This document shows, one piece after another, positions 3,819 through 53,377 of a stretch of 64,000 nt of DNA. This stretch comes from a plasmid. Positions within the stretch are counted from its first letter, which is position 1, and the number at the start of each line of letters is the position of its first letter. A program made the translations under genes and the position numbers. The DNA is taken from NCBI RefSeq assembly GCF_056746865.1, contig NZ_JBWKMP010000003.1; one strand, 5' to 3'. The notes below the pieces were generated by a model. The model saw only the letters and a list, made by a program, of their open reading frames with translations. It was not told where the DNA came from and searched no databases.

Positions 3819-5740
3819 TAAAGAAACCTATTCGAATAAATATCCAGTCCACTTTTGCAGATACGCTCACTGGATATACGCCTAATCGTTGGGTGGCGGA
3901 AGATATCACCGAGGATGATTTACTTATCGAGCCTGCGACGCTGGAAGATATCGAGCTGGCCTATATGGGCAACGAAATTTTGGTAACTACCAATGAGGCA
4001 ATGTTCGAAGCTTTAACCACAACAAAATTGCGGTTAGCGCAAACAATGCGAGCATTTGTCCGGGCGCTTAATCGCGGCCTGAATGGCACTGACATTGCTG
4101 CGGGTACGGATGAGGCAGGTGAATATGAAGACGGACGTAATAGTATCGGTGGGGCAATCATTGGGCGCGTGCGCCGGGTTGCTAATATCCCTGTTGTAAC
4201 AGCACAAATACCTCTAACCGATGGACAAACGACAAGCATAATTTTCCATTCTCCAACCGCAGACGGCACAAGAATTAAAGGGGATGACGAGCTGGTTGCG
4301 TTTCAGTTTCTTCTTAACAAAAGAAACGTTACGCATGTTGTTGCGCCAATCGGTGGGCGTGATGTATCTCTGAGCCAGGTGTGTCAGGCGCTTTCTAACC
4401 TCATTGAGCGTAACAGTGCAAAATTCAAAAAAGCAAAGGAGCGCCAGGACAAAATGAAGGCTGATATTGAGGGGTATCTCAATGAAGCCGACAAGCTGGC
4501 AGAAGAACGTTCTGTGCTGATTGAGCAGGTTGAAGACGCACAGCGGGGGCTGGCAGAGAAACGCTCAACACTCAATGATATGCAGAATAAATTAGACGCA
4601 CAAAAAGCCCTTAACGGGGAATTGCAGGCTAAGCGCGATAATTTATTGTCAGCTAAGAGCCAAGGAACTAAAGAGCGTGCCTTCAATGATCAACTGCGAC
4701 ACATAAAACATAATCTTGCTACAGAAGGCCAAACAACGCTGGATAATGGTGCTGTAGTTAAGTATGTCACGTCAGGCAGTGATAGCTTTGTCACGATTGA
4801 GGCACCAGAAGGCAATTTCAGTATTGATGTCAGTGCTGTTAAAGGTGGGAGTTCAGCGGACGCTGCAACCAAATTACTTAAAGCCTATCGTGAACATAAT
4901 GCTGATCAATACAAAGTGGATGTGTTGCCGGGCCAGCCTGAGCCAACTGATCAGCCGCAGCCTGAACAGGAGCCACAACCAGCATCACATCCTGATCCCC
5001 TGGAGGTTGGTAAATATCGCTATGCGCTACAATCTCGCCCGGCGGGTGTTGGTGCGGTTCCTGAAGGAAATAAAGCTGTACTTGACCGTCCTGATCAGGC
5101 TGATCCGTATTACGAATATGCTCGTCACGGAATCATTACGTATGACCGCAAACTGACAGACGAAGAAGTCAGTCAGTACGAATTACGCTATCTGCCTGAT
5201 GACGATGAACTGAGAGGGATGGCGAACGAGCTGGTTGCGTCCAGCATGGTAAAACATATTGATGGCTATGTAGATCTGTTTGGAAGTGACCTGAAAACAT
5301 TCAAGGCGCAAGTTAAAATTCTTTTCCGCAAAGCGTTCCCGAACGTGGCATATCCACTTGGTGATGGGGAGAACCTTTTCATTATGGACGTGTATAACGC
5401 CCTTCAAAATCATTCAAGCGAAGTAAAAACAGATCCTGTAGTTGAGCCAGAATCGCAACCTGCACCAGCACCAGAACAGGAGCCGGAGCCAGAAGAAGCG
5501 GGTGAATCAGCAAGCGAAGCTGACCAGGAAGCAGATAAAGCGCTTGAGTACCTGAAATCCGTTCCGGAGCAGTTCACATCCCGCGATCTGACGGTCATAA
5601 GTGCTGAACTTGATCATGTGCAGGAAGCTGCAAACGCTCTTATCAGTGCTGGTCGATATGACGAGAACGAAGCAACTGTAGGTGCAGCCGTTGACTACCT
5701 GATCAATATTCTGGCTGAAATTCAGCAGGGAGGTGCTTAA
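3815..5740 (+). CDS. DarA-like candidate (large head-associated protein with coiled-coil and Pro/Glu-rich linkers)
   Basis: 641 aa, close to my recollection of the size of P1 DarA; operon context lyd-like, this gene, small gene; two PEPxxQP-type linkers. Assignment is from size and position, not alignment. Confidence 0.35.
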   Translation: MIKKPIRINIQSTFADTLTGYTPNRWVAEDITEDDLLIEPATLEDIELAYMGNEILVTTNEAMFEALTTTKLRLAQTMRAFVRALNRGLNGTDIAAGTDEAGEYEDGRNSIGGAIIGRVRRVANIPVVTAQIPLTDGQTTSIIFHSPTADGTRIKGDDELVAFQFLLNKRNVTHVVAPIGGRDVSLSQVCQALSNLIERNSAKFKKAKERQDKMKADIEGYLNEADKLAEERSVLIEQVEDAQRGLAEKRSTLNDMQNKLDAQKALNGELQAKRDNLLSAKSQGTKERAFNDQLRHIKHNLATEGQTTLDNGAVVKYVTSGSDSFVTIEAPEGNFSIDVSAVKGGSSADAATKLLKAYREHNADQYKVDVLPGQPEPTDQPQPEQEPQPASHPDPLEVGKYRYALQSRPAGVGAVPEGNKAVLDRPDQADPYYEYARHGIITYDRKLTDEEVSQYELRYLPDDDELRGMANELVASSMVKHIDGYVDLFGSDLKTFKAQVKILFRKAFPNVAYPLGDGENLFIMDVYNALQNHSSEVKTDPVVEPESQPAPAPEQEPEPEEAGESASEADQEADKALEYLKSVPEQFTSRDLTVISAELDHVQEAANALISAGRYDENEATVGAAVDYLINILAEIQQGGA

Positions 5741-6201: not shown

Positions 6202-7587
6202 TTGAACAAGTCAGTTACTTCCGCGCTATCCGAAGCAGCAGACATTAACAGTGTTATTGCGCTGGTTTCTTCATTAGAGAGGCGAGAAACACGCCAGGGG
6301 CGCAGTAGTTACGTAGTCACCAGTAAAGGGGCAGAGGTAAAGACGGCTTTTAAGGTCGTTGATGCCAGCAGTCTGATCATTTCGAACAACCTTGACGGTA
6401 CGATTAATCCGGCCTTCCCGGAAGAACTCCAACCACGAGATCGTACCCGGCTATCCAGCAAACTCCAGGTTAACCGTATTGCCTCCAATTTACGCCCGGC
6501 ACAATTAACGGATTCCGGTATGAGCAGCCACGGAGCGCCGATAGTTGGTCCGGACAACGTTGTTGAATCCGGCAACGGAAGGAGTATGGGTATCTGGCGT
6601 GCCTATGAGCAAGGACAGGCGGATGAGTATCGCCAGTACCTGATCGACCATGCGAAAGAGTTTGGTCTGAATCCTGACGAAATTTCGCAAATGTCTATGC
6701 CCGTACTGGTGCGAGAAAGACTCACAGATGTAGACCGCGCTCAATTTGCCCGCGATTCAAACATTAGCGATCTGCAAGAGATGGCAGCAAGTGAAAAAGC
6801 GTATGCGGATGCGCAATTTCTCACTGAGAGCGTCATGGCGCTATTTAATCCTTCAGATGATGGAAATCTGCTGGCGCGGTCCAATGATGCGTTTATTCGT
6901 GCGTTTTTGCGCGAAATTGGCGATACAGCGACGGCAGGCTTGCTTACTGCCGATGGGCGTCCCACGAAACAGCTTATCGATCGCATCCAGAATGCAATTT
7001 TTGCCAAAGCGTACAAGGATGAAAGGCTTGTTCGGTTGGTGGCGGAAGAGCCAGATCCGGAAATGCGTAACATCCTTACCGCATTAAATACGGCAGCCAG
7101 CGATTTTGCGCAAATGCAGTCGCTTTCAGGTGATGTTCACCATGACACGGTAACCGGACTGGTAGACGGTATAGAGCAATTGAATGGTCTGGATAAACAG
7201 GCTATAGCAGCACTCCAGGACGCGATTAACCTTGTTCGTGAAGCCAAAGACAACGGTCAGGCAGTGGAAGAGGTGATAGCCCAGCGCGGACTCTTCGGTG
7301 ATAGCACGCCGGAAGCTGAGGCGTTGGCGCTATTCATCGTGGCAAATAATCGAAGCGCGAAGCGCATGGGGGCTGCATTCAAAAAAATGGCACAAAAAAT
7401 CAACGACGAACTGATTCATAAACAGCAGGCGTTGGGCGATATGTTCGGCGGTGGAGATGTCGATCTACGTAGTATTTTGACCGCTGTTTCTAATGAGATT
7501 GAACTGGAACATGGAGAGGGGAAAGGGCTTAACTTCACGATGTTCGAAGCCAAAACAGAACAAAGCGATTTTGGGCTGGAAACCTGA
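6202..7587 (+). CDS. Hypothetical 461-aa protein, probable TTG start
   Basis: Long ORF with RBS aagggga 8 nt upstream of TTG; no recognisable motif by eye; occupies the slot after the dar-like genes. Confidence 0.5.
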   Translation: MNKSVTSALSEAADINSVIALVSSLERRETRQGRSSYVVTSKGAEVKTAFKVVDASSLIISNNLDGTINPAFPEELQPRDRTRLSSKLQVNRIASNLRPAQLTDSGMSSHGAPIVGPDNVVESGNGRSMGIWRAYEQGQADEYRQYLIDHAKEFGLNPDEISQMSMPVLVRERLTDVDRAQFARDSNISDLQEMAASEKAYADAQFLTESVMALFNPSDDGNLLARSNDAFIRAFLREIGDTATAGLLTADGRPTKQLIDRIQNAIFAKAYKDERLVRLVAEEPDPEMRNILTALNTAASDFAQMQSLSGDVHHDTVTGLVDGIEQLNGLDKQAIAALQDAINLVREAKDNGQAVEEVIAQRGLFGDSTPEAEALALFIVANNRSAKRMGAAFKKMAQKINDELIHKQQALGDMFGGGDVDLRSILTAVSNEIELEHGEGKGLNFTMFEAKTEQSDFGLET

Positions 7588-14633: not shown

Positions 14634-17600
14634 TTGAGGGGGCTTCCTTTGGACAAAATAATTGATTCAATTAGCCAGGCCACCAGCATTGGGGCGCTGA
14701 TTGAAATTGTTAGTCGGTTGCATAAACCGCGAGCTGTAGTGACCTTTGGCGTTAAGAAAGTCGATGGCGTCAGTATTCAGAAAACACGCCGGACAGCAAA
14801 CAACGCCGCAGTAGATCTTCTTAATTCCCTTCCGCCCGGCTTCGATGGAGCGAAATTAACTGACGAACAGCGTCAGATTCTTGCCGGGTATACCGGTGAA
14901 GGCGGCCTGACAGATGGTGAGGGCAGCCAATACGAATACTATACGCCACAGTTTATGGCAGAAGGTATATGGGATCTCTTCGGCGACTACGGTATTGATA
15001 GCGGTCACGTACTGGAACCGTCAGCAGGCACAGGTATTTTCCAGGAGACAAAACGGCAGGGCATGATAATGACCAGCGCCGAACTGTCTCCGATCTCCGG
15101 TCGAATAAACCAGCTTTTGCACCCGGAAGATGATGTGAATATCGGGGCGTTTGAGGCGCTGGCGGCGAAAGATGCAATGTATGACCACGCAGTTGGTAAC
15201 GTACCGTTTGGCGAAGGGCGTTCCGGCGTCGCCGGGCTTGATCCGGCATATGCAAACGAGAAGAACGTTGGCAATTATTTTGTGCTGCGCACGATCGACA
15301 AGGTTAAGCCTGGTGGGCTAATTGTATTGGTGGTGCCGAATGGCATGACCGATGGTACGAAATACAAAAAATTGCGCGATAAAGTCAGCCGTAAAGCGGA
15401 ATTTTTGGGCGCGCATCGTATGCCTTCTGGTACGTTCAGCGAATCCGGTACAGATACCGTGGTGGACGTATGGGTATTGCGTAAACACCCGGAAACCTTC
15501 CTGGAGATGATCCCCGACACGGATGATGCAACGCTCAAATCGGCAAACGTCCTTTGGGATACCTTCCTCAAAGGGAAATGGTTTACAACCGAAGGGAAGC
15601 GATTTGTTTACGGCGACATGGAACGCACCAGCTTCCGCAATACCCTGGTGGTGAAAAAGGACGGTCGTGTATCCAATGAGTCGATGAAAACCGCGTTATC
15701 ACGCCGCTTTGAAAGCCGTATTAATTGGGATTTGCTCGGAGTAACTACCCAGGCATGGCAGGGCGCAAAAGTAGGGGATAAGCGTCTTGTAGGCGGTATC
15801 TGGCATGAGTTTGATGGCCTGAAATGGGTTAAGGACACGACAACCAAATCCTCCGCGCTTGATGTAAGTCGATATGGTGTTTCGACGTTTGGCGATCTGC
15901 AGATCGCGTTCCAGTCAACAAACGGGATTCTGGCTTTGTCATGGGACCAGATATCGGCGATCGCGTCCGACTATCCATCGGTTGTCAGTGATGAAGTGGC
16001 AGCAATGATTCGCTTTGCTGGCAAACAGCGAGAAAAAGACAGGGAGCGCGTTATGCGCGGTGCGTTGATAGGGCAGTTGATCAACAAGGCACTTGATTTG
16101 CGTAACCTGGGGGTGAACGTTGATGACAAACTGGCAGATGCATCCCGCCTGGCGGCAGCAGAAGTTGCGAAGTATGGACCACCGCACGCGATTAAGCTGA
16201 ATGGGCTTGCTGAAGCTGGCGCTAAAAACTGGATGACGTTCACTGGCAATGTGAAACAGGATGGTTCCACTTCTGACCTTCTGGCAGGGCGACTTGATGT
16301 AACGGATGGTGCTGCCGGTATTGACTTTACACGTCCGGAACAAGTGATAGCACATCTTTTCAGTGATGTAGCCCTTAATCCTATAACGCTGGGCGACTTT
16401 CGTGAGGCGTTTGCTGGTGAACTGCCAGAGGACGACGACGCGGCCCTTGAATACCTGGCGAAATTTGATGATATCGCTATTGATGGGTATGGCTGCCTGC
16501 TGCCGATGGACCGCGCCACCAGCGGCGATATTGTAACCAAAACAGCATTGCTGGTGGGCTGGCGTGATGCATCAACAGGTGAGCAGAAAGCGAACTTTGA
16601 GCGTCAGTTGGCGAAAATCGAAGAGAAACGCATTTTCACGCCACTAAATAAAGTCACCGTTAATCTGAACGCCCGCTGGCTGGATCGCCGCTTGATAAAA
16701 GAGTTCCTGGCAGAGCAGGGCTATGACGAGTTTAAGTACACTGAACCTGATCTGAAGGTCGTCGATGGCATTCTGGTATCTCCGGACGATTACGAAGGTA
16801 AGGACGGGGTATTTACCGGCTATCAGCTACGAACCGTAAACGGCAAAAACGGGAATGAGTTCAAGAAGGCCAACAATAAAGACGGCTTCCTGAACCAGTT
16901 AGAAAACTACCTGAACGGTGTTAAACCGCGTGGGCAGAACGCTAACGAGTACCTGGATAAAATTGCTCAACTGGAAGTTAGCTTTAACGACTGGTTACGC
17001 ACCCACCCGCAGGCGGATCAGATAGCCCGTGACTATAACGACGCATTCAATGGCTTCATTCCGTTCACGCACTCTAACGCACCGCTTGGCCTGGAAGGGA
17101 TTAGTGGAAAGCGCATTCCTCTGACTTATCAGAATGAAGAAGTTCGTCGCTTGTCAGAAGATGGGCGCGGCATCATGGGATTTGGTACCGGGCTGGGTAA
17201 AACCACGACCGCGCTTGCGCTTGAGGCGTATAACTTCGAAACAGGTCGTACTAAACGCACGTGTATTGTTGTTCCGAAGGCGGTTTATCAGAACTGGTAT
17301 CACGAGGCACAGAGCTTCTACAGTGCTGATGCCTTCGCCAATATGATGTTTATCGGTCTGGATGAAGTTCGTGATGACAGCGGAAATATTCTGACCGCTC
17401 CGGTGCTTGATGAAAATGGCGAACCCCGCCTCGACAGTAACGGGCAGCCTCTTACCAGAAATGTTGTGAAAGAGTCCGCCAGCGCCGTTATCGTTCAGCG
17501 CATGAACATGATCCCGTCGTCAAATTGGCGAACGGTCATCATGACAAAAGAACAATTCGCGTCTATCCCGCTACGAGAAAAAACCATCGAGGAGAACTCA

Positions 17601-20600
17601 CAGCAAGCTGTCTTTAATGCTGTGGAAATGGGGCGTCTTGACCTGGCGTCTGGTAAACACCGTGATGCGCAGAAGAAGAACAAGATTAAGGATCAGGCCG
17701 CGAATACCGGTACAACGAAGAAGCAGAATATCCCGTACTTTGAGGATATGAACTTCGATAGCGTGATAGCCGACGAGGGGCATAACTACCGCAACTCCTT
17801 TAATGCCGGGCGTGAAGCGGGACAACTGGCATATTTGCCTAACCCGGCAGTATCCAAGATGGCCCGCGACATGGCTGTAAAAGCTGCGTACATGATGAAA
17901 CGCAACAACGGGCGTGGTGTAGTCATGCTGACGGCAACACCGCTGGTGAACAGTCCGATTGATGCCTTCAACATGCTGTCTACTGTCATTCCGCAGGAAG
18001 AGTGGATGCGCATGGGCATCATTACGCCTGATGATTTCGTTCGTGTGTTTGGTAAAACAGCCACAGTTCAGGTCCAGAAAATTTCCGGGGAAGTGGAAGA
18101 GAAGCAGGGGCTGGTTGGCTTCCAGAACCTTGATGGCCTGCGTGGTATTTTCCATCGCTGGACTACTCTGAAGACTGCTGCGGACGTCGGGGCGACGGTT
18201 AAAATCCCTGATATTGTCGAGAATACCTTGCAGATCCCGATGACAGGGGAGCAGGAGGCTGCTTATGAAGAGCTTCGTAAGCGTGCACAGGAGTTAAGTA
18301 GTAAAGATGCGCTGACGGTTGATGAAAACGGGCATATCACAAACGAAAAACCGGATGATTTCATCTTCTCCATCATCCGCGACATGGATAAGGTTGCTAT
18401 AGATCCGGATCTGTATGCCAGTGCGATTACATTCCAGTTCCCCGTTGAGCTTGCAGACAAGGTAAAAGCTATTGCTGATGCCCTGCCAAAAGTAGCTGGC
18501 GGTAAAGTGGCAGATGATGCAGACGAGGCCGAAGAAGACGGCGCTGGTGGGCTGGTTAGTACGCGCACCAGTAAGGTAGTGAAGACCACCTTTAGTGAAC
18601 ATCCGGCGCATGTTGAAATACGTGCCAGCATTGAACTGGAAGCTGAAATACTGAAGGCCATTGCTGCCGCCGGGATTGATATGCAGCAGGTATCACACCC
18701 AATCCCGCCGAAGTATGCCGCGCTGATCGAAAACCTTCGTGAAGGTCTGAAGAACGGTAAACAAATTGTCTTCATTGATGAAAAAGCCCAGCACCAGAAG
18801 CTGCGCCGTATTATCGCCAGTGCACTGCAAATGCCGGAGCAGGAGATAGGCATTATCAATGCGACGACCGTTAGCCAGGCTGGCGGCATCAAGCTGAAGA
18901 AGGTGAATAAGCCGACTGAACCTACTCCGAATAAAAACGGTGAATACAAAGAAGGGGCATGGGAAACCTACTACAGCAAACTTGCCCAATATGAGGATTA
19001 TCTCTCAGCTAAAAATGATGCTGGCCTTGAGGGTATGGAAGGCATTGCCGCCGACTATAACGAAGGGCGCACGCGCATAATTATCTGTAACAAGAAGGCT
19101 GAAGTAGGTATTAACCTGCATATCGGGACAACCGATATCCACCACCTGACACTACCCTGGACACCAGCCAGTATCGACCAACGAAATGGGCGCGGTGCGC
19201 GCGTAGGTTCACCGCAAGAGAAGGTCAATGTTCACTACTATTGTGGCAAAGGCACATTCGACGACTTCCGTCTGGATACGCTGAAACGTAAGAAAGACTG
19301 GATCAAGATGGTAATGACCTCCGACATGTCAGAGATCGCCAATGGTGATGCGGATGATGCTGATGAACGCGCCATTATGCTGGCGGCAAACCCGGAAGAA
19401 CGCCGCGCAATCATGGCTCGCCAGGCGCAAGAGCGTGAAGAACGTCTGAAACTGAAAGCACAGCGCGAGGCCAACAATGCTCTCGATATCTACCTGAAAG
19501 CGGCAAACGCCGCTGGAAAAGATATCGGCATGATGGAGACAGAACTGAAAAGCGCGATGGAACAGATAGAGTATTACCAGCGAAATCTTGACGACCTGAT
19601 AAAAGCGGGTACGAACAGGAATGGGCAAAAATTCGCGCTTGAGCAGTTGAGTAGCTACAGAAAACGTGCGCGGGTGCTGCGGTTTGCGATCACCAGGGCA
19701 AAAGACGCGGATACCATAATGAAACGCTCTCGTGGTGATGTGGAGCGCGCTATTAAGTCTGGTGTGCTGGATATCAGTATCGATGTTATTCAGAACCCAC
19801 AGGAATATATGCGCACTGACAAGAATATCCTGTTGCATAAAGGTAGTTATTACCGTGCAGTCATTGATGATCGCGAAACAACAGCGATTGTCCGGGTGGA
19901 AAAAATTGACGGTGAAAAAGCACAATACCTCTGCCGTATCGCCTGGCTGGATAGAGCAAGTCGTTACGCTCGATCACCGGGGTCAATCGTTACATTGCCG
20001 TTTGACTCTGTGATTGAAGCGGTAACTTTTGAAGAGGGGGTAGCTGAATCGCGCGCAACGGCTGCGCGTGGTGTTCAGTGCCACCAGCTATCAACAATAC
20101 TTACTCGCGATCAGTTCTATGATGCTATTCGCAATGGGGTAATGAATGTTATTGCTGGTAAACCTGGTAATGCATGGGGCGGTGGGTCAGCTATTAAATA
20201 CTGGGCATATCGCACAGATGATGGTCAGATCGCGCTGTCATCGGCCTATGATGGCGTGATAGGCCAAAAAATCGGGCGAGCATCGGATATAGCACCTGAA
20301 CGATGGATATATCCAGATGGCAACGATGAGGCGCTGAAGCGTGAAGTGGCAAAAATACAAGCCAGTGATAACCCGCTGAATATCGTGGACGGCGAGGGAT
20401 TCCTCCAGGCATTGTATGGGTATGATTACATCCAGGGAATGCAGGCATGGGGCGCACAGGCAACGATGGATGATGTTGTCCAGGAGTTCGAAAACTGGAT
20501 GGCTGGGCGTGGTCTGTCAGGTCGTTCGCTTAATAAAGTCACTTCTGAAGATATTCTTAGCTTGTTCCGCAAACCGTCCGGAGAAGGTCTGGAATCATTC

Positions 20601-38226: not shown

Positions 38227-38607
38227 TCAAATATTGGAACCATATAGTTCACGTAGTTTATCCGCTACTGAAGATACGGGGATTTCACCAGTTGCAGCCC
38301 CCACCGCAAGTTCCACCAGCACGGGAGAATCATATACCTGTATACCGTTACGGCGTAGAAATAGCAGCGCACTGTTTAGCGCGGTACGCTTATTGGCATC
38401 ATTGAATATATGCCCTCTCGCTGTAGCCACCAGGTAGGTGGCGGAGACTTCGAAAAGGTCGGTGATCTCTTCGTAGGCAACTCTGGCCTGAACTCTCCCG
38501 ATAATGGCCTCTGCCCTGCCCGGATCTGACATGCCAGGCAGGCCGCCGTAGCGGCTTATATTCGCATCATGAAGCGCAATAAGTTCTTCCGGTGATATAT
38601 GCCTCAT
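38227..38607 (-). CDS. doc: Doc toxin (Fic-fold kinase) of the phd/doc addiction module
   Basis: 126 aa; [78 protein letters not shown] matches P1 Doc as I recall it almost residue for residue. Confidence 0.92.
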
Positions 38608-38828
38608 TATCGGTTAACCAGTTCCTTGTTGGTGGAGTCCAGGGTGTCAAACAGGGATGCAAATTCAGCATCCAGCGCCGCTTTTTTGTAGGCTTCGAAA
38701 GTAGCCTTGCTGACAATTACTGCTGGCTCACGGCCTCTGCGGGTGATTTCAACCTCTTCCCCGGCTTCAACATTGTTGAGCACTTCAGAAAGGTTGCCAC
38801 GCGCGGTACGGAAGTTAATGGATTGCAT
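38607..38828 (-). CDS. phd: Phd antitoxin
   Basis: [73 protein letters not shown] matches P1 Phd as recalled; stop overlaps the doc start. Confidence 0.92.
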
Positions 38829-38900
38829 AAACACCTCGTGTACTCGTTATGTGTACACAATTATAAACTTCACAGGCATAAAGCACCAGCACTTTGCAGC

Positions 38901-39290
38901 TTAAATAACCGGACAATCATCAAATTCCCCACTTCGGGCATCATTGATGACATGAGTGATCACACCAAAAACAGCATTACTGCCCGTGTATCCATCGTCA
39001 TCTACTGGTAACGCCTCTTTCTTCCCGGTGCTTAAGTCCTCCAGGTGCTGGCGCGGATACTTCCTGTATCTCTTTATGCGATATTCACCCTCCATAGCGC
39101 ACACAAGCAGAGAACCATCAACCGGAGTAAGCGAGGAATCAACCACCAGCAAAGCACCCTGCAATATTCCCTCACGGTGATGGCTATCAGCTGCCCGCAT
39201 GAAGTAGGTCGCTGAAGGATGTCTAATTATCTGCTGATCAAGAGAAATTCGGCTTTCAACATAATCCGCCGCAGGAGAAGGGAAGCCCAT
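38901..39290 (-). CDS. humD: HumD-like UmuD' homolog
   Basis: GFPSPAADYVESRISLDQQIIRHPSATYF aligns with UmuD; lacks the N-terminal autocleavage segment like P1 HumD; lies upstream of phd/doc as in P1. Confidence 0.8.
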   Translation of the reverse strand: MGFPSPAADYVESRISLDQQIIRHPSATYFMRAADSHHREGILQGALLVVDSSLTPVDGSLLVCAMEGEYRIKRYRKYPRQHLEDLSTGKKEALPVDDDGYTGSNAVFGVITHVINDARSGEFDDCPVI

Positions 39291-48332: not shown

Positions 48333-49019
48333 TTACGGCTGGCCTCCCTTCACCTGCTTTAGCGTCAGATTTCCGCAAAAAACCGCGCCAGTGTCTATGT
48401 AGTGCTGGTTCCAGAAAGATTTCGGGCTGTTTACTGGCGTATGCCCGAAAATAAAGCTATCTGCACCAGTGATCATTCCACCAACACCATCAACCGCGTC
48501 ATAAAATCGCTCACGCCGCCAGGTAACATTGAGATCGCTAACAGGTTTACCAAACTGGTATTCGTTATCAGGATAGTCGGCATGGGCTATAACGATAGTT
48601 TCATGCCCGGTGTTCAACTCAATGATATAGGGTAAACGTCTTACCAGCTCCACCAGCGCCCTGGCTAATATTTCCCGATCAGCGTCCAGCATGAAGAACC
48701 ATTGGCCGCCATTCATTAGCCAGTTATTCACGTTGCCTGCGGGGCTTAACGCATCGATCATTAATCGCTCGTGGTTTCCCATAACCGACCGAAACCAGGG
48801 CATCTGCAATAGCTCCAAGCATTCAACATTTTCGGTGCCGCGATCGATAAGGTCGCCAACCGATATCAGTAAATCCTGTGTCGGGTCAAAGTCCACACGA
48901 TGAAGTTCAGACATCAATCTGGTGTAGCAACCATGCAGATCACCAACAACCCATATGTTTCTGTAGCCTGAACCATCAATACGGCCATATAAATTCACTT
49001 CATGCAGCGCCTGGGTCAT
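48333..49019 (-). CDS. Ser/Thr protein phosphatase (calcineurin-like metallophosphatase)
   Basis: GDLHGC ... GDLIDRG ... GNHE motifs. Confidence 0.75.
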
Positions 49020-49327
49020 GCGGCAACCTTCTCCCGCAGCCAGATACAAACCGGGCCATCTTCAGTGTCATGAATAGAGCCAACAAACCATCCTTCGCCC
49101 TCTGGTCGCTCTGGTTCCCAGGCGGCAATATCGGGACCATCTGCGTCCAGATTAAAATGATCTTCATCCATACTGCGAATAGTCCACTGAAGATTATTAT
49201 CCTTCATCCAGGCGTCAAATTCCTCAGTGGATATATATTCACGACCTGCGCAAAACTTTTCATATTCCGGATGTGTCCAGCAGCCATATTCATCACGTTC
49301 TACCGGCATTTCTTTAATGATGCTCAC
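49016..49327 (-). CDS. Hypothetical acidic protein
   Basis: Coupled ORF. Confidence 0.45.
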
Positions 49328-49548
49328 TCTTCATCCTCCAAGTCGGCAACGGCCTCCATCACATCAGAACCGCGAATAACCTCAAAAGCACGGCAGGCCA
49401 TTTCAAACACCTGTTGTTCTTGCGGATGCGGTGACTCCCAATACTTAAAACCAGGTCGATGCTCGTAACCCAACATGGAATAAAAATCGCCAGCAAGTTC
49501 AATCGCTGCATCAACAAGTTCGCGATTTGTCATCGTCTGTTCTGTCAT
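49324..49548 (-). CDS. Hypothetical protein
   Basis: Coupled ORF. Confidence 0.45.
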   Translation of the reverse strand: MTEQTMTNRELVDAAIELAGDFYSMLGYEHRPGFKYWESPHPQEQQVFEMACRAFEVIRGSDVMEAVADLEDEE

Positions 49549-49820
49549 TTTGTTTTCTCCTGTCTGAACATCACTATCATCAGGTCGCCTTTTGTCGCTA
49601 TCCTGGCTGTTGTACCTGGTTCAATGCGGCTAAGCTCAAATGCGTCATAGAACGCTTCTAATGCCTTCTGGCGTAGTTCCTGTTTGCGCCGTTTTTTCCA
49701 CTGTTTTAGGAAAATGGAACCCAGCCATCGCCATGTACGGGACATGATGTAAAGCCAACCGAGAAGTGCCAGACCGGTATTTAGGAGCGTATCGATCGTT
49801 ATTGTCGTGTCGATATTCAC
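49545..49820 (-). CDS. Hypothetical membrane protein
   Basis: N-terminal TM segment. Confidence 0.45.
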   Translation of the reverse strand: MNIDTTITIDTLLNTGLALLGWLYIMSRTWRWLGSIFLKQWKKRRKQELRQKALEAFYDAFELSRIEPGTTARIATKGDLMIVMFRQEKTK

Positions 49821-50584
49821 TGGCTGCCTCCTTTGCGAAGCTGGTCGGCGAACAAACGTACACTAGACGCTTCACTGCGTAGAAACTTAACGGCATAATC
49901 AAAACCACCTCGTTCTGCGTCGTCTGCTCCGTTGTCGAGGTTATCTGCGTACATCTCTACCCCCTGCGCACGTACTTCAGCCAGGAAAGCATCGGTGGCT
50001 GGGGTATCAACACGGATACTGTCGCGCAAGATGAAAAATGCATTGAGCATTCCAGTCTCTGGCACTTCATCCTGATGCTTCTCATACGCATCAAGAGCCT
50101 TCATCATCTCAGCTCCGAATGGTTGAGGGTGCACAGACTTCAGCTCCGCATTCTCCGCCGCCAGCACCGCGCGTTCGCTCTCCAGTTCTGTAATGCGCCG
50201 TCTTGCAGCATCCAGTTCAATCGACAATTTTCCCAACTGCTCTTTATGCTTCTTGTATTCCTGATATGCGTGCCAAGACTGACCTTTGCGCACACTATCC
50301 GTGATATCAGTAATCTGTTCTGGTGTTAGCGTGGTCAGTGGCTGTGCTGGGAAAATCAGCACTTTCCCAGCATCCCAATCAAAACCCACCTGAATTGACT
50401 GAACCTCAACTGATGGTGTTGAACCGATGCGACCAGGCGAATGAACAACGATCGTTACATCCATATCGCGACGATGGCTGTGGTTGTTGGACAAAATACG
50501 ATTCACCAACTCCGAGAATTTGGAAAATTTCATGCTGATTCCCTTTGCTCTTCCTGGATAATGTTGTTGCAATCTTTCACGCAC
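49817..50584 (-). CDS. ead/Ea22-like family protein
   Basis: [14 protein letters not shown] block and C-terminal [11 protein letters not shown]. Confidence 0.5.
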
Positions 50585-50853
50585 TCGTTGCAGATGAAAA
50601 CGTTGTCCCCGGCAATTAACTTTTTAACGGTGTGCTGGGATTTGTTGCAGAAGCTGCAATAAAGCGTTGGACTGGCTGATATGGATGGTGCGCCAGATGT
50701 CAGCCGCGCGATGTCGTTCTTGCGACGCAATATCACACGGCTGCACTCGACCAGCATCTCCGGGGATATATCCTCCTCCGTGGCGAGCGCCTCCAGACGT
50801 TCGAGCAAGCGAAATACTTTTTCCTGGGTGATTGCAGAATGCGATGTGGTCAT
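50530..50853 (-). CDS. ClpX-type zinc-finger domain protein
   Basis: [36 protein letters not shown] matches the ClpX N-terminal zinc-binding domain pattern. Confidence 0.5.
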
Positions 50854-50854
50854 C

Positions 50855-51529
50855 TCACTCTCCTTTGATGCGAATGCCAGCGGCACGGGAGTCATTCCAT
50901 CGCTTTACTTCTTCACGAATTACGTCAATGCATTCTTTCGAATCCATTAGGTAATCTTCATCAAAAAGCCTTTCCTGTTCGTTTTCTATCGCAACAATGA
51001 TTGCTTCAACTAACTTTTGTGCCTGAGAACCACTTTCTAACTCTGCAATGCGCTTCTCTGCGGCTTCCAGCTTCTCGCGCATATCGTCAACGTACTCGAC
51101 CAGAGATCCGCCAGCAGGAATTTCGCACTCCTCGACCAGTTGGAAGTAGATATCAGCTGCGGCCCGTGTGTTGCTATGCCTAGCGTCGCCCATCTCACCT
51201 TCACGAAGAGCATCGCGTTCGGCGGTAAGATTGGCTATTTTGCTGTCTTTGCCTTCAAGCTCAACGCGCAGCTTCCCTACCGTTAGCGCAATATCCTCGT
51301 TCTCCTGGTCGCGGCGTTTTATGTATTGCTGGTTTCTTTCCCGTTCATCCAGCAGCGCCAGCACAATGTGTGGCGTTATCAAGGACTCAAATTCGGCAAC
51401 AGCTTGCTCACCTCGCTTGTAATTCTTAATCCCACCTAAATCTTTCGCGTTCTGTGCCGCCTCACGCAGCGCCAGTGTGTCGATGTCGATGTCGATGTTG
51501 CTCATTGTGCCTCCTCGATTTCGTCCCAT
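50855..51529 (-). CDS. ead/Ea22-like family protein
   Basis: Same conserved block as 43941-44693. Confidence 0.55.
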
Positions 51530-51735
51530 TCCACCCAGGCATTCTCTCCATCAGCATCGATTTCACCTTTGTGACCGCATTTGGAACAAACGGCCTCATC
51601 ACCCGCCCACAAAGAATCTTTGGTTACCGACCATCCTGTTACCCTGGCTTTGCCGTGCTGGCACCTAGGGCAATCATCAAGCCATTCGACTTCGACCGTT
51701 GAAGGACCAAATCCATGTTCAGTTCGGATGCTCAT
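51502..51735 (-). CDS. Small zinc-ribbon protein
   Basis: CPRCQHG ... CSKCGHKG. Confidence 0.4.
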   Translation of the reverse strand: MSIRTEHGFGPSTVEVEWLDDCPRCQHGKARVTGWSVTKDSLWAGDEAVCSKCGHKGEIDADGENAWVEWDEIEEAQ

Positions 51736-52235
51736 GACTGAACTCCTTTGCGAATCTGTTCCGCCCATTCTTCAAGGGATTTCTCCGCATATTCACCGGA
51801 CAGGCCATCAATCGGATGCGGTTCATTAGCCAACTCTTCTTTCGCTGACAAAATCATGCGTGTAACGTCGAAAACTTCACGCAAAGACTTATTGATAAAT
51901 CCGTGATTGAACGCAGCAGCAAGACGGCTTGCGGTGTAGTTAATCCCCTCGTTGCGTGCCTCCGCACGTATTTCAGCCAGGAAAGCGTCGGTGGCTGACA
52001 TATTTCCTGTTGCCTTCATGGCCTTCAAAATAACCAGAACGCCATCTTGCCCAACCAACTCGGAGATAATCTCAGTGTTGTCGCCAACAACCTCACAGAA
52101 TGCCTGAACAGCTTTACGAGCAAGTGCATTCTCCGCCGCCAGCGCCGCGCGCTCTTTCTCAAGTCGGGAAATTTCCGTTACATACTCAGCGTTACGCTCT
52201 GCCAGTTGTGCGGGCGTTAAACCTTCAGACTTCAT
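51732..52235 (-). CDS. ead/Ea22-like family protein ([12 protein letters not shown] block)
   Basis: Paralog of 44690 and 49817. Confidence 0.5.
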   Translation of the reverse strand: MKSEGLTPAQLAERNAEYVTEISRLEKERAALAAENALARKAVQAFCEVVGDNTEIISELVGQDGVLVILKAMKATGNMSATDAFLAEIRAEARNEGINYTASRLAAAFNHGFINKSLREVFDVTRMILSAKEELANEPHPIDGLSGEYAEKSLEEWAEQIRKGVQS

Positions 52236-52542
52236 GCACTCTCCTTTCGAAATAAACGTACTGATTAATCATGCCCAGGGGCATTTCGAACTTTTCTGCG
52301 ATCTCACGGCGGGGAACGCCACACTGATGAAGCTGCCGCGCCAGCTCTATATCGCTCTGCCGGTATTTGGCTGACTGGTGAAAGTCACCTTTCAGAATCA
52401 TGCTGATCCGCAATTGCCGCGCTTTAGTCCTGACAGCACCACCGGTACGCCCGATCAGTCTCCCAATACCCTCGACTGTCATAGTCCCGGCGCACTGGCG
52501 GAGTATCATGATTTCTGCCCTTCCCCATCCCCGCCAGCTCAC
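52225..52542 (-). CDS. Small HTH protein (sigma-70 region-4-like)
   Basis: C-terminal HTH-like RREIAEKFEMPLGMINQYV. Confidence 0.4.
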   Translation of the reverse strand: MSWRGWGRAEIMILRQCAGTMTVEGIGRLIGRTGGAVRTKARQLRISMILKGDFHQSAKYRQSDIELARQLHQCGVPRREIAEKFEMPLGMINQYVYFERRVHEV

Positions 52543-53150
52543 GCAGAACTCCTTCTAACCAAAAGAACGCCATCTTCAGAAACAACGTTGCAGGACTTCA
52601 GGTAATTCATTGCCTCTTTCGGTAATGGATTCTTTGGATCGGCGCTTGCCAGGGATTTCGATAACCTCATGATAAATTTGATCATTACCTTCTGACGGAG
52701 CTTGTGCTCATGGGATGCAGACAGGTAATAGGAAATGGTATGGGCTAAACGCTCACGAAGCTGTTCTGTGCCGTGATATACAGCAGCGATATCACGCAGT
52801 GCATTGACCAGTTCCCGGTAAATATGCGGAGCAACCTGGCATTCAATGTTGGTTGGTGACTCATAAATTACATTCAGCCCCAGCTTTTGAGCCAGCTCGT
52901 GCTCTGCACGAGCGCCAACTGATTCCTCCCACCCCTTGAGCAAATAGACCGCATTAGCCGAACGCACCATTGCAAGGCAAATATCCATGTATTCGCTCTG
53001 GCAGAGGCCAGCAGGTAACAGCGCCGGATTCAGAACAATATGCCCTACCTCCATCAGCTCTTTTGCTTTCGAAAAAAACGCTGTGCGGTTGTAGTCGGGA
53101 TAACCAGTCATCGGACCCGCGATGTAAATTTTCATAATGCGTTTTGACAT
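52539..53150 (-). CDS. DUF4406 (nucleoside 2-deoxyribosyltransferase-like) domain fused to a C-terminal domain shared with 39980-40615
   Basis: MKIYIAGPMTGYPDYN ... LLKGWEESVGARAEHELAQKLGLNV fits DUF4406; C-terminal APHIYRELVNALRD segment is paralogous to 39980-40615. Confidence 0.5.
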   Translation of the reverse strand: MSKRIMKIYIAGPMTGYPDYNRTAFFSKAKELMEVGHIVLNPALLPAGLCQSEYMDICLAMVRSANAVYLLKGWEESVGARAEHELAQKLGLNVIYESPTNIECQVAPHIYRELVNALRDIAAVYHGTEQLRERLAHTISYYLSASHEHKLRQKVMIKFIMRLSKSLASADPKNPLPKEAMNYLKSCNVVSEDGVLLVRRSSA

Positions 53151-53345
53151 CAAAGTTTCCCCAGGAACGTTACGCAAAAGTTAATGAGAGCAAAGAGTTC
53201 AATGCCCAGCTCAAACAACGCCAGGACAGTGAAAAACAGGGCATATAGCAACCCAATTTCTGTACCGGATTGCTGGTGGATTGCACTTATTGCGACAAGC
53301 ATCATGACCTCCTGATATAGCGTCTGAAAAAAGTATCTTCATTTT

Positions 53346-53377
53346 GTGTTAGAAAATCAATTTTGATTTTCTAACAC
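53346..53377. promoter_or_regulatory. Perfect operator palindrome GTGTTAGAAAATCAA-tt-TTGATTTTCTAACAC
   Basis: 15-bp arms are exact reverse complements; sits between the divergent minus-strand operon and the ref-like gene. Confidence 0.6.

Follow-up and report, generated by a model that had tools for sequence, protein, structure and literature searches.

The window analysed here, a 64,000-nt stretch of plasmid DNA (NCBI RefSeq assembly GCF_056746865.1, contig NZ_JBWKMP010000003.1), encodes on its minus strand a 107-aa protein, ending in ...EEQRESA, in which an orphan N-terminal domain is joined by a linker to a zinc-binding domain (ZBD) of the type that stands at the N-terminus of ClpX. At the sequence level, the similarity to the ClpX-type zinc finger is far beyond chance, and substitution patterns indicate that both domains are under purifying selection and that the ClpX-like sequence is old. 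By analogy with ClpX, we tentatively favour the reading that the protein would mimic, in trans, the docking domain at the N-terminus of host ClpX and serve as a decoy for adaptors and substrates, a proposal that we regard as plausible but short of probable. The gene and the parts of its product are located as follows.

50530..50853, minus strand: gene for the 107-aa two-domain protein (orphan N-terminal domain, linker, ClpX-type ZBD), from the open reading frame (ORF) list, Pfam and PHROG 6797
50698..50832, minus strand: orphan helical hairpin, codons 8-52, from the secondary structure predicted by AlphaFold2 (AF2)
50668..50697, minus strand: Ser/Pro/Ala-rich flexible linker, codons 53-62, from AF2
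50548..50667, minus strand: C4 ZBD, codons 63-102, from PF06689, PDB sequence matches and the AF2 fold
50860..50865, minus strand: Shine-Dalgarno sequence AAGGAG, 6 nt upstream of the ATG and within the end of the Ead/Ea22-like gene, by direct reading of the sequence

The ClpX-type zinc-binding domain

The original prediction had placed a stand-alone zinc finger of the ClpX type in the C-terminal 35 aa of the protein. The motif is indeed present (C66-x2-C69, K78-L-I-A-G82 and C88-x2-C91) and its location is correct, whereas its extent was set too short, as the domain comprises about 40-45 aa (residues 63-106). The putative zinc ligands are C66, C69, C88 and C91 (CxxC-x18-CxxC), the KLIAG strand is formed by residues 78-82, and a C-terminal helix is predicted by AF2 for residues 89-106. 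The zf-C4_ClpX profile search that had been suggested as a check resulted in a match of PF06689 to residues 65-101 (profile positions 2-39 of 39, E = 9.8e-18) with a score of 64.2 bits against the Pfam cut-off of 27. Moreover, a phmmer search of all PDB sequences retrieved solely the ClpX ZBD (1OVX at E = 1e-15, plus 2DS5-2DS8), and identity to residues 12-50 of Escherichia coli ClpX is about 70%. In the AF2 model, which was built with a 16-sequence family alignment and has a mean predicted local distance difference test score (pLDDT) of 74.7, the ZBD adopts a fold of zinc knuckle, β-hairpin and C-terminal helix (pLDDT 81-90), and Foldseek superposes it on 2DS5, 2DS6 and 2DS8 with a root-mean-square deviation of 0.7 Å over 38 residues at 71% identity. 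The stand-alone character of the finger could be established as well: the NCBIfam ClpX models (NF003745 / TIGR00382) are matched at positions 5-50 only and score 47.5 and 43.6 bits versus cut-offs of 359 (ClpX equivalog) and 371, hence an AAA+ module is missing from the protein. Overlooked, on the other hand, were the conserved N-terminal domain (residues ~8-52), which amounts to half of the protein, and the setting of the gene, namely P1/D6-type phage-plasmids and P2-like prophages and not a lambdoid phage.

Conservation was assessed across 23 distinct family sequences, with positions given in ClpX numbering. The four cysteines are invariant in 23/23, and near-invariance is seen at L12, S15, F16, K19, V24, L27, I28, G30, V33, I35, V40, N44 and I47. 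Likewise, Y13 and K26-L-I-A-G30 are kept family-wide, with KLIAG found in about 20 of the 23 sequences. Regarding the hydrophobic pocket, position 16 is F throughout (23/23) and position 46 is I, V or L in 22/23, as far as can be told at the sequence level. Conservative exchanges occur at R25 (to K), Y34 (to F) and I46 (I/V), and positions 18, 23, 31, 32, 41, 42 and 45 are variable.

In RefSeq, the entry for this protein already bears the name 'ClpX C4-type zinc finger protein', so the domain call as such is not new; the window product equals WP_021551796.1 except for one change in the linker, I58V. It also matches PHROG 6797, a family of unknown function, over its full length (E = 1.5e-56, residues 1-106 on profile positions 1-106 of 107). 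The GenBank name 'carboxylate-amine ligase', used for D6 orf93 and P88 gp19, is an annotation error, since no such Pfam or NCBIfam match exists and PF06689 is the only one; in the form 'carboxylate--amine ligase' it is attached to the genes at 6986-7306 of locus L002 (D6 orf93) and 4432-4764 of locus L013 (P88 gp19) as well as to many GenBank homologues.

The orphan N-terminal hairpin

AF2 predicts two helices in the N-terminal domain (residues 10-25 and 31-52), whose invariant residues include E11, K12, E18, R19, E21, E26, E27, E36, R43, R44, D47 and L51. The linker behind it has pLDDT values below 50 at residues 56-59 and differs in length between family members. When a profile of the N-terminal domain (residues 1-61) was searched against 1.84 billion representative proteins, only 10 matches were obtained, eight of them being members of the N-domain-plus-ZBD family or truncated or frameshifted fragments thereof (P0042, P0045 and P0043 are such defective copies) and the remaining two, P0041 and P0047, multi-stretch repeat matches. 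The domain has no Pfam match (inspected up to E = 10, nothing below E = 0.04), its sole match in PHROGs is the family itself (phrog_6797), and Foldseek did not find a fold match for the N-terminal half in the PDB or BFVD. Neither in sequence nor in fold does the non-ZBD part resemble the ClpXP adaptors and anti-adaptors SspB, RssB and IraD/M/P. Judging from these sequence searches, the conserved orphan domain always accompanies the ZBD, and the protein is more than a bare free ZBD. The hairpin is amphipathic and probably self-associates; its pLDDT is slightly raised in the tandem-fusion model described below, although that model as a whole is not confident.

An XB-like 'LRRK' in helix 2 (residues 42-45) was considered as a self-ligand and dismissed as coincidence, as its fourth position is not hydrophobic and the stretch lies inside the helix. 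Besides, the N-terminal module MKSEGLTPAQLAERNAE of a 167-aa ORF encoded at 51732-52235 (minus strand) also fronts the ZBD-family homologues P0001, P0008 and P0017 (119-120 aa), which points to module shuffling among genes of the Ead/Ea22 region.

Selection and origin of the zinc-binding domain

Over 44 codons, the ZBD shares 66% amino-acid and 61% nucleotide identity with clpX of strain MG1655, third positions being the same at just 15 of 29 conserved residues and Ser codons having switched class. With so low a nucleotide identity and half of the synonymous third positions differing, a recent capture of host clpX can be ruled out; the ZBD is not a recent fragment of the host gene. Estimates of dN/dS by the Nei-Gojobori method among six family genes range from about 0.14 to 0.35 for the N-terminal domain, in pairs with unsaturated synonymous sites. 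For the ZBD, values of about 0.2-0.45 were obtained in divergent pairs, where synonymous sites are near saturation, and of 0.4-0.9 among close relatives. Together, the dN/dS values and the divergence from clpX argue for a ClpX-like surface that is maintained by selection.

Replicon and distribution

The window represents a D6-like phage-plasmid from E. coli that belongs to the P1 family. Its ZBD gene is 99.7% nucleotide-identical to the copy on E. coli plasmids of about 90-95 kb and 88.6% identical to that of phage D6. By megablast, the gene was found in 108 of 5,426 complete E. coli genomes, with 103 plasmid and 5 chromosomal places. Divergent members are encoded by P2-like prophages and by P88, an isolated phage (gp19); in some of these, including P88 gp19 and P0044, the N-terminal domain is about 50% identical to that of the window, and the ZBD retains 65-75% identity to ClpX. 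The P2-like loci carry the gene between the replication gene gpA and the portal gene, on the strand of gpA and often beside Ead/Ea22-like genes, an interval described as an anti-phage hotspot of P2 (PMC9122126). No neighbour gene is conserved across the D6-like plasmid and P2-like prophage contexts, and the ZBD protein therefore probably acts with host components rather than with a phage-encoded partner.

Several other genes of these replicons are worth mentioning. In P88-like P2 prophages (L007-L011 and L013), the stretch separating gpA from the ZBD gene includes partition genes resembling ParM/StbA and StbB, located about 1.5 kb upstream of the ZBD gene; such genes are unusual for integrating phages of the P2 type. 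The window also holds ref, a DarB-like 2,283-aa gene, ppp, a pdcB-like DUF968 gene, phd-doc and humD. The 2,283-aa ORF (14634-21485, plus strand) contains N6-methylase, SNF2/ResIII and helicase-C domains and probably corresponds to the antirestriction protein of the DarB type that P1-family phages encode. In the 38227-39290 segment (minus strand), doc (38236-38607), phd (38610-38828) and the UmuD'-like gene humD (38934-39287) follow each other. Phd is 100% identical to the presumed Phd sequence of P1, the value for Doc is 94%, and the humD product shares 42% identity with E. coli UmuD. On some sister plasmids, such as NZ_CP085065.1 (L001, 1-3876), the type I restriction-modification genes hsdS and hsdR are encoded about 5 kb from the ZBD gene, and ClpXP is needed for type IA and IB systems to become established in a new host (PMC12707154). 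A link of the ZBD gene to the alleviation of type I restriction by ClpXP was nevertheless set aside, as the DarB-like gene is the only one in the window long enough for HsdR and hsd genes were not found in the 12-16-kb P2-like loci examined.

Operon structure and operator-like repeats

48333..53305, minus strand: operon of 12 small genes including the ZBD gene, from ORF coordinates, Pfam/PHROG matches and the RefSeq annotation of near-identical plasmids
53346..53377, no strand assigned: perfect palindrome GTGTTAGAAAATCA-ATTT-TGATTTTCTAACAC, from an inverted-repeat scan and direct reading

The operon spans about 5 kb, and its genes abut or overlap by 1-4 nt. In order, it encodes a 51-aa hydrophobic ORF, a DUF4406 protein, a 94-aa 'DNA-binding protein', the 167-aa ORF already mentioned, an 88-aa Zn-ribbon ORF, the Ead/Ea22-like protein, the ZBD protein, a 238-aa ORF, a DUF4752 protein, a 74-aa ORF, a 103-aa ORF and a Ppp-like metallophosphoesterase. 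The ATG of the ZBD gene at 50853 lies 1 nt past the TGA of the upstream Ead/Ea22-like gene, and its own TGA is shared with the ATG of the following gene in the form ATGA; the ZBD gene is thus translationally coupled within its operon. A longer version starting from ATG 50895 (121 aa) was rejected, as it overlaps the upstream gene, lacks a Shine-Dalgarno sequence and is unused in RefSeq. Two genes upstream, the 88-aa ORF (51502-51768, minus strand) shows two CxxC pairs, weak zinc-ribbon matches and a match to phrog_4446, which makes it a second small putative zinc protein of the operon.

The palindrome at 53346-53377 is situated between the first gene of the operon and the divergent ref gene and represents a putative repressor operator over divergent promoters. 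Its half-site TGTTAGAAAATCA, with up to two mismatches allowed, occurs 14 times in the window versus 2.0 occurrences expected, a number that no shuffle reached, and most copies are intergenic by comparison with the ORF list. The motif TGTTAGAAAAT[T/C]A is found twice as a palindromic pair (53346-53377 and 24696-24725) and at 10 further sites, including 11288, 23451, 28398, 34236, 48271 and 53995. In P1, C1 operators are scattered over the genome. By analogy, the TGTTAGAAAAT[T/C]A copies are probably the operator set of a D6-type immunity repressor; no copy of the actual C1 operator consensus of P1 occurs in the window. From this arrangement, we infer control of the operon by a repressor and its activation soon after induction or infection.

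A proposed decoy for partners of the ClpX N-terminal domain

The N-terminal domain of ClpX is a hub where adaptors and many regulatory substrates dock. Its ZBD has a hydrophobic side pocket (F16, I46) which overlaps the λO-binding site and to which trigger factor, SspB and RssB bind, and λO escapes degradation when the ZBD is missing (PMC7804408); residue-level statements made here on the XB and dimer interfaces rest on that study and on general background on ClpX. In vitro, the isolated ClpX ZBD added in trans inhibits RssB-mediated degradation of σS (PMC7226468), and ZBD(1-52) alone binds XB-containing peptides with KD values of 35-82 nM (PMC12373786). A phage-encoded ZBD might act in the same way, and the titration of ClpX adaptors or substrates that the original prediction had envisaged is compatible with the retained cysteines, KLIAG strand and pocket residues and with the inhibition seen in vitro. 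Expressed from the presumably repressor-controlled accessory operon of the phage-plasmid, or from the early operon of P2-like phages, it would rival the ZBD dimers of ClpX itself for docking partners and could sequester the XB tail of SspB, RssB, the UmuD tether, trigger factor or substrates of the λO or MuA type. As the protein combines a ClpX-type ZBD with the lack of an AAA+ motor, it would bind the ligands of the ClpX N-domain yet be unable to unfold or deliver them. Consequently, adaptor- and N-domain-dependent ClpXP proteolysis and remodelling would be selectively dampened, leaving direct, pore-recognised substrates unaffected. By self-association, the hairpin could confer the multivalency for trapping dimeric adaptors as avidly as the ClpX hexamer; alternatively, it might bind a second partner. 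That no obligate partner gene is kept across contexts would fit a host target.

Degradation of λO and MuA is reportedly blocked by free ZBD as well (work of Wojtyra from 2003), and UmuD reportedly tethers UmuD' to the ClpX N-domain (Neher, 2003). With respect to the window itself, it may be speculated that Phd and HumD are beneficiaries of a ClpX N-domain decoy on this replicon. Their counterparts from P1 and E. coli (Phd and UmuD/UmuD', respectively) are ClpXP clients; for P1 Phd, this was reportedly described by Lehnherr and Yarmolinsky in 1995.

Several points weigh against a decoy. Relative to ClpX, P31-S32 is replaced by D/E-D/N and Y34 by F, the window subclade has K-D in place of D41-L42, and the subclade of P0019 and P0021 carries A29T and Y34C. 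Since several surface positions differ, the partner specificity of the phage ZBD may have diverged from that of ClpX. Further, AF2 modelling of a (GGGGS)6-linked tandem copy did not result in a confident ZBD dimer (predicted template modelling score of 0.43), with the pLDDT of the ZBD decreasing to 65-75 and that of the N-terminal domain slightly increasing to 85-86. The constant pairing with a conserved orphan domain suggests more than passive titration. Besides, free ZBD is effective in vitro at micromolar excess only, and the benefit of blocking delivery of the SspB or RssB type is not obvious for a P1-like or P2-like phage. In a variant, the ZBD would serve as entry into the ClpXP network, either by trapping adaptors with a multivalency like that of the hexamer or by pairing with ClpX N-domains, and the hairpin would redirect substrate choice, so that phage clients such as Phd or HumD would be protected or a protein of the host or a rival phage destroyed; we deem such a rewiring improbable.

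Alternative explanations

One alternative is an adaptor hijacking ClpX, whose ZBD would dock on ClpX, for example in mixed dimers, while the hairpin recruits a host or rival-phage target or the N-domains are blocked stoichiometrically. A target-binding module fused to a docking module would be expected to look like the N-terminal domain observed here, that is, conserved, under purifying selection and tied to the ZBD. In ClpX, the ZBD dimerises constitutively (PMC7226468), and the phage copy is about 70% identical to it; a recent review expects hijacking of proteases by phages, with none found yet (PMC12707154). Still, the N-terminal domain lacks a recognisable binding fold, helix position 42, beside pocket residue I46, varies (V/L/A/I/D, the window protein having Asp), and ClpX ZBD dimers are generally known to be stable; we consider this explanation quite unlikely. 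Unlikely, too, is a generic zinc-ribbon module for peptide binding or dimerisation, with a target outside the ClpXP network, such as a phage replication, partition or regulatory protein, and a likeness to ClpX reflecting mere ancestry. PF06689 reportedly features in a study of how cyanobacterial sigma factors are built from modules as well. In favour of a generic module, surface positions 18, 23, 31, 32, 41, 42 and 45 of ClpX vary, one subclade has exchanges even at A29 and Y34, ZBD dN/dS is higher in close relatives (0.4-0.9), and the neighbours are of no known function (Ead/Ea22-like) or, in P88-like phages, ParM/StbB. What is invariant, however, are the strand and pocket of ClpX (L12, F16, KLIAG, I46/I47), and 65-75% identity to ClpX persists even in P88 gp19 and P0044 with their strongly diverged N-terminal domains; moreover, a partner gene kept across contexts is missing.

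A role in prophage exclusion or defence, in which the protein made by the lysogen would deny superinfecting phages the function of the ClpX N-domain (e.g., in remodelling the Mu transpososome) or, by stabilising σS, alter the stress physiology of the host, could explain the position of the P2-like copies in an anti-phage hotspot, and many genes of the gpA-portal locus proved to be defensive (bioRxiv 10.64898/2026.02.27.708500). Nevertheless, neither the ZBD protein nor five neighbouring proteins have a match in PADLOC-DB v2, in P2-like phages the gene runs in the direction of the early gpA operon and is closely packed with it, and the location of the window operon behind an operator-like palindrome suggests lytic or repressor-controlled and not constitutive lysogen expression, making this role very improbable. 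Finally, the gene is short, located in a highly mosaic region with pseudogenised neighbours, and some copies are truncated or frameshifted (P0042, P0045 and P0043), as might be expected of a non-functional remnant, that is, a clpX 5' end acquired by illegitimate recombination. An origin of this kind is scarcely credible in view of the intact ORF, the length and start kept across P1-like plasmids and P2-like phages, the good Shine-Dalgarno sequence, the translational coupling and the 61% nucleotide identity to clpX; with dN/dS below 1 in both domains and near-saturated synonymous divergence, it is effectively refuted by the selection analysis.

Significance and comparison with known systems

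If the decoy hypothesis is correct, phages tune the regulated proteolysis of their host by imitating the docking site of a protease. Were the ClpXP network rewired via the ZBD, the protein would stand as the first viral mimic of a protease docking domain to occur naturally in bacteria. The protein could also serve as a selective genetic tool against N-domain-dependent ClpXP pathways (SspB, RssB/σS, UmuD', λO, MuA) with clpX left intact, and might account for the way in which plasmid prophages of the P1 type regulate how stable their ClpXP-sensitive proteins are. As a generic zinc module, it would be one more uncharacterised accessory gene. In the literature searched, neither a functional study of this protein or of phage stand-alone ZBDs nor a description of a phage-encoded ClpX N-domain mimic was found. 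New here are the two-domain architecture, its spread among temperate phages of the P1-like and P2-like kinds, the signs of selection and the particular mechanism proposed for the decoy.

With the ZBD of E. coli ClpX (residues 1-60; 1OVX, 2DS5-2DS8), the phage domain shares, in prediction, the C4 treble-clef-type fold. In contrast to ClpX, the phage ZBD is C-terminal and not N-terminal, is preceded by the orphan hairpin and is not connected to an AAA+ ring; in addition, it has an acidic β-turn (P31-S32) and changes at positions 41, 42 and 45 of the helix. Like the phage protein, the recombinant isolated ClpX ZBD is a free ZBD without motor (PMC7226468). The latter, however, is a laboratory construct, whereas the phage protein is a natural, selected gene product with an extra domain and a predicted activity. 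The isolated ClpX ZBD was reportedly also used as an in vitro competitor by Wojtyra et al. in 2003 and Thibault et al. in 2006. Other ZBD-only miniproteins of phages are phrog_12435 (65 aa, labelled 'protease'), phrog_5259 (70 aa) and a 65-aa protein of Pseudomonas phage PP9W2, which are weak matches (E = 3e-9 to 3e-5) and do not possess the N-terminal hairpin; a zf-C4_ClpX-like region is present in Caulobacter phage Cr30 as well.

Phage modulators of host AAA+ proteases include the Lon inhibitors PinA of T4 and Gp4.5 of T7, and λ RexB stabilises ClpP-dependent substrates, while Gp53 of SPO1 is a ClpC adaptor-like protein. The concept of tuning host proteolysis is common to PinA, Gp4.5, RexB, Gp53 and the ZBD protein, but they are not homologous to the latter and in no case has a protease domain been copied. 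Conceptually related to the proposed decoy are also the E. coli anti-adaptors IraD, IraM and IraP, small proteins that block one branch of ClpXP proteolysis and leave the protease untouched. These anti-adaptors bind the adaptor RssB via unrelated folds and have no sequence similarity to the ZBD protein, which would instead imitate the docking site of the protease.

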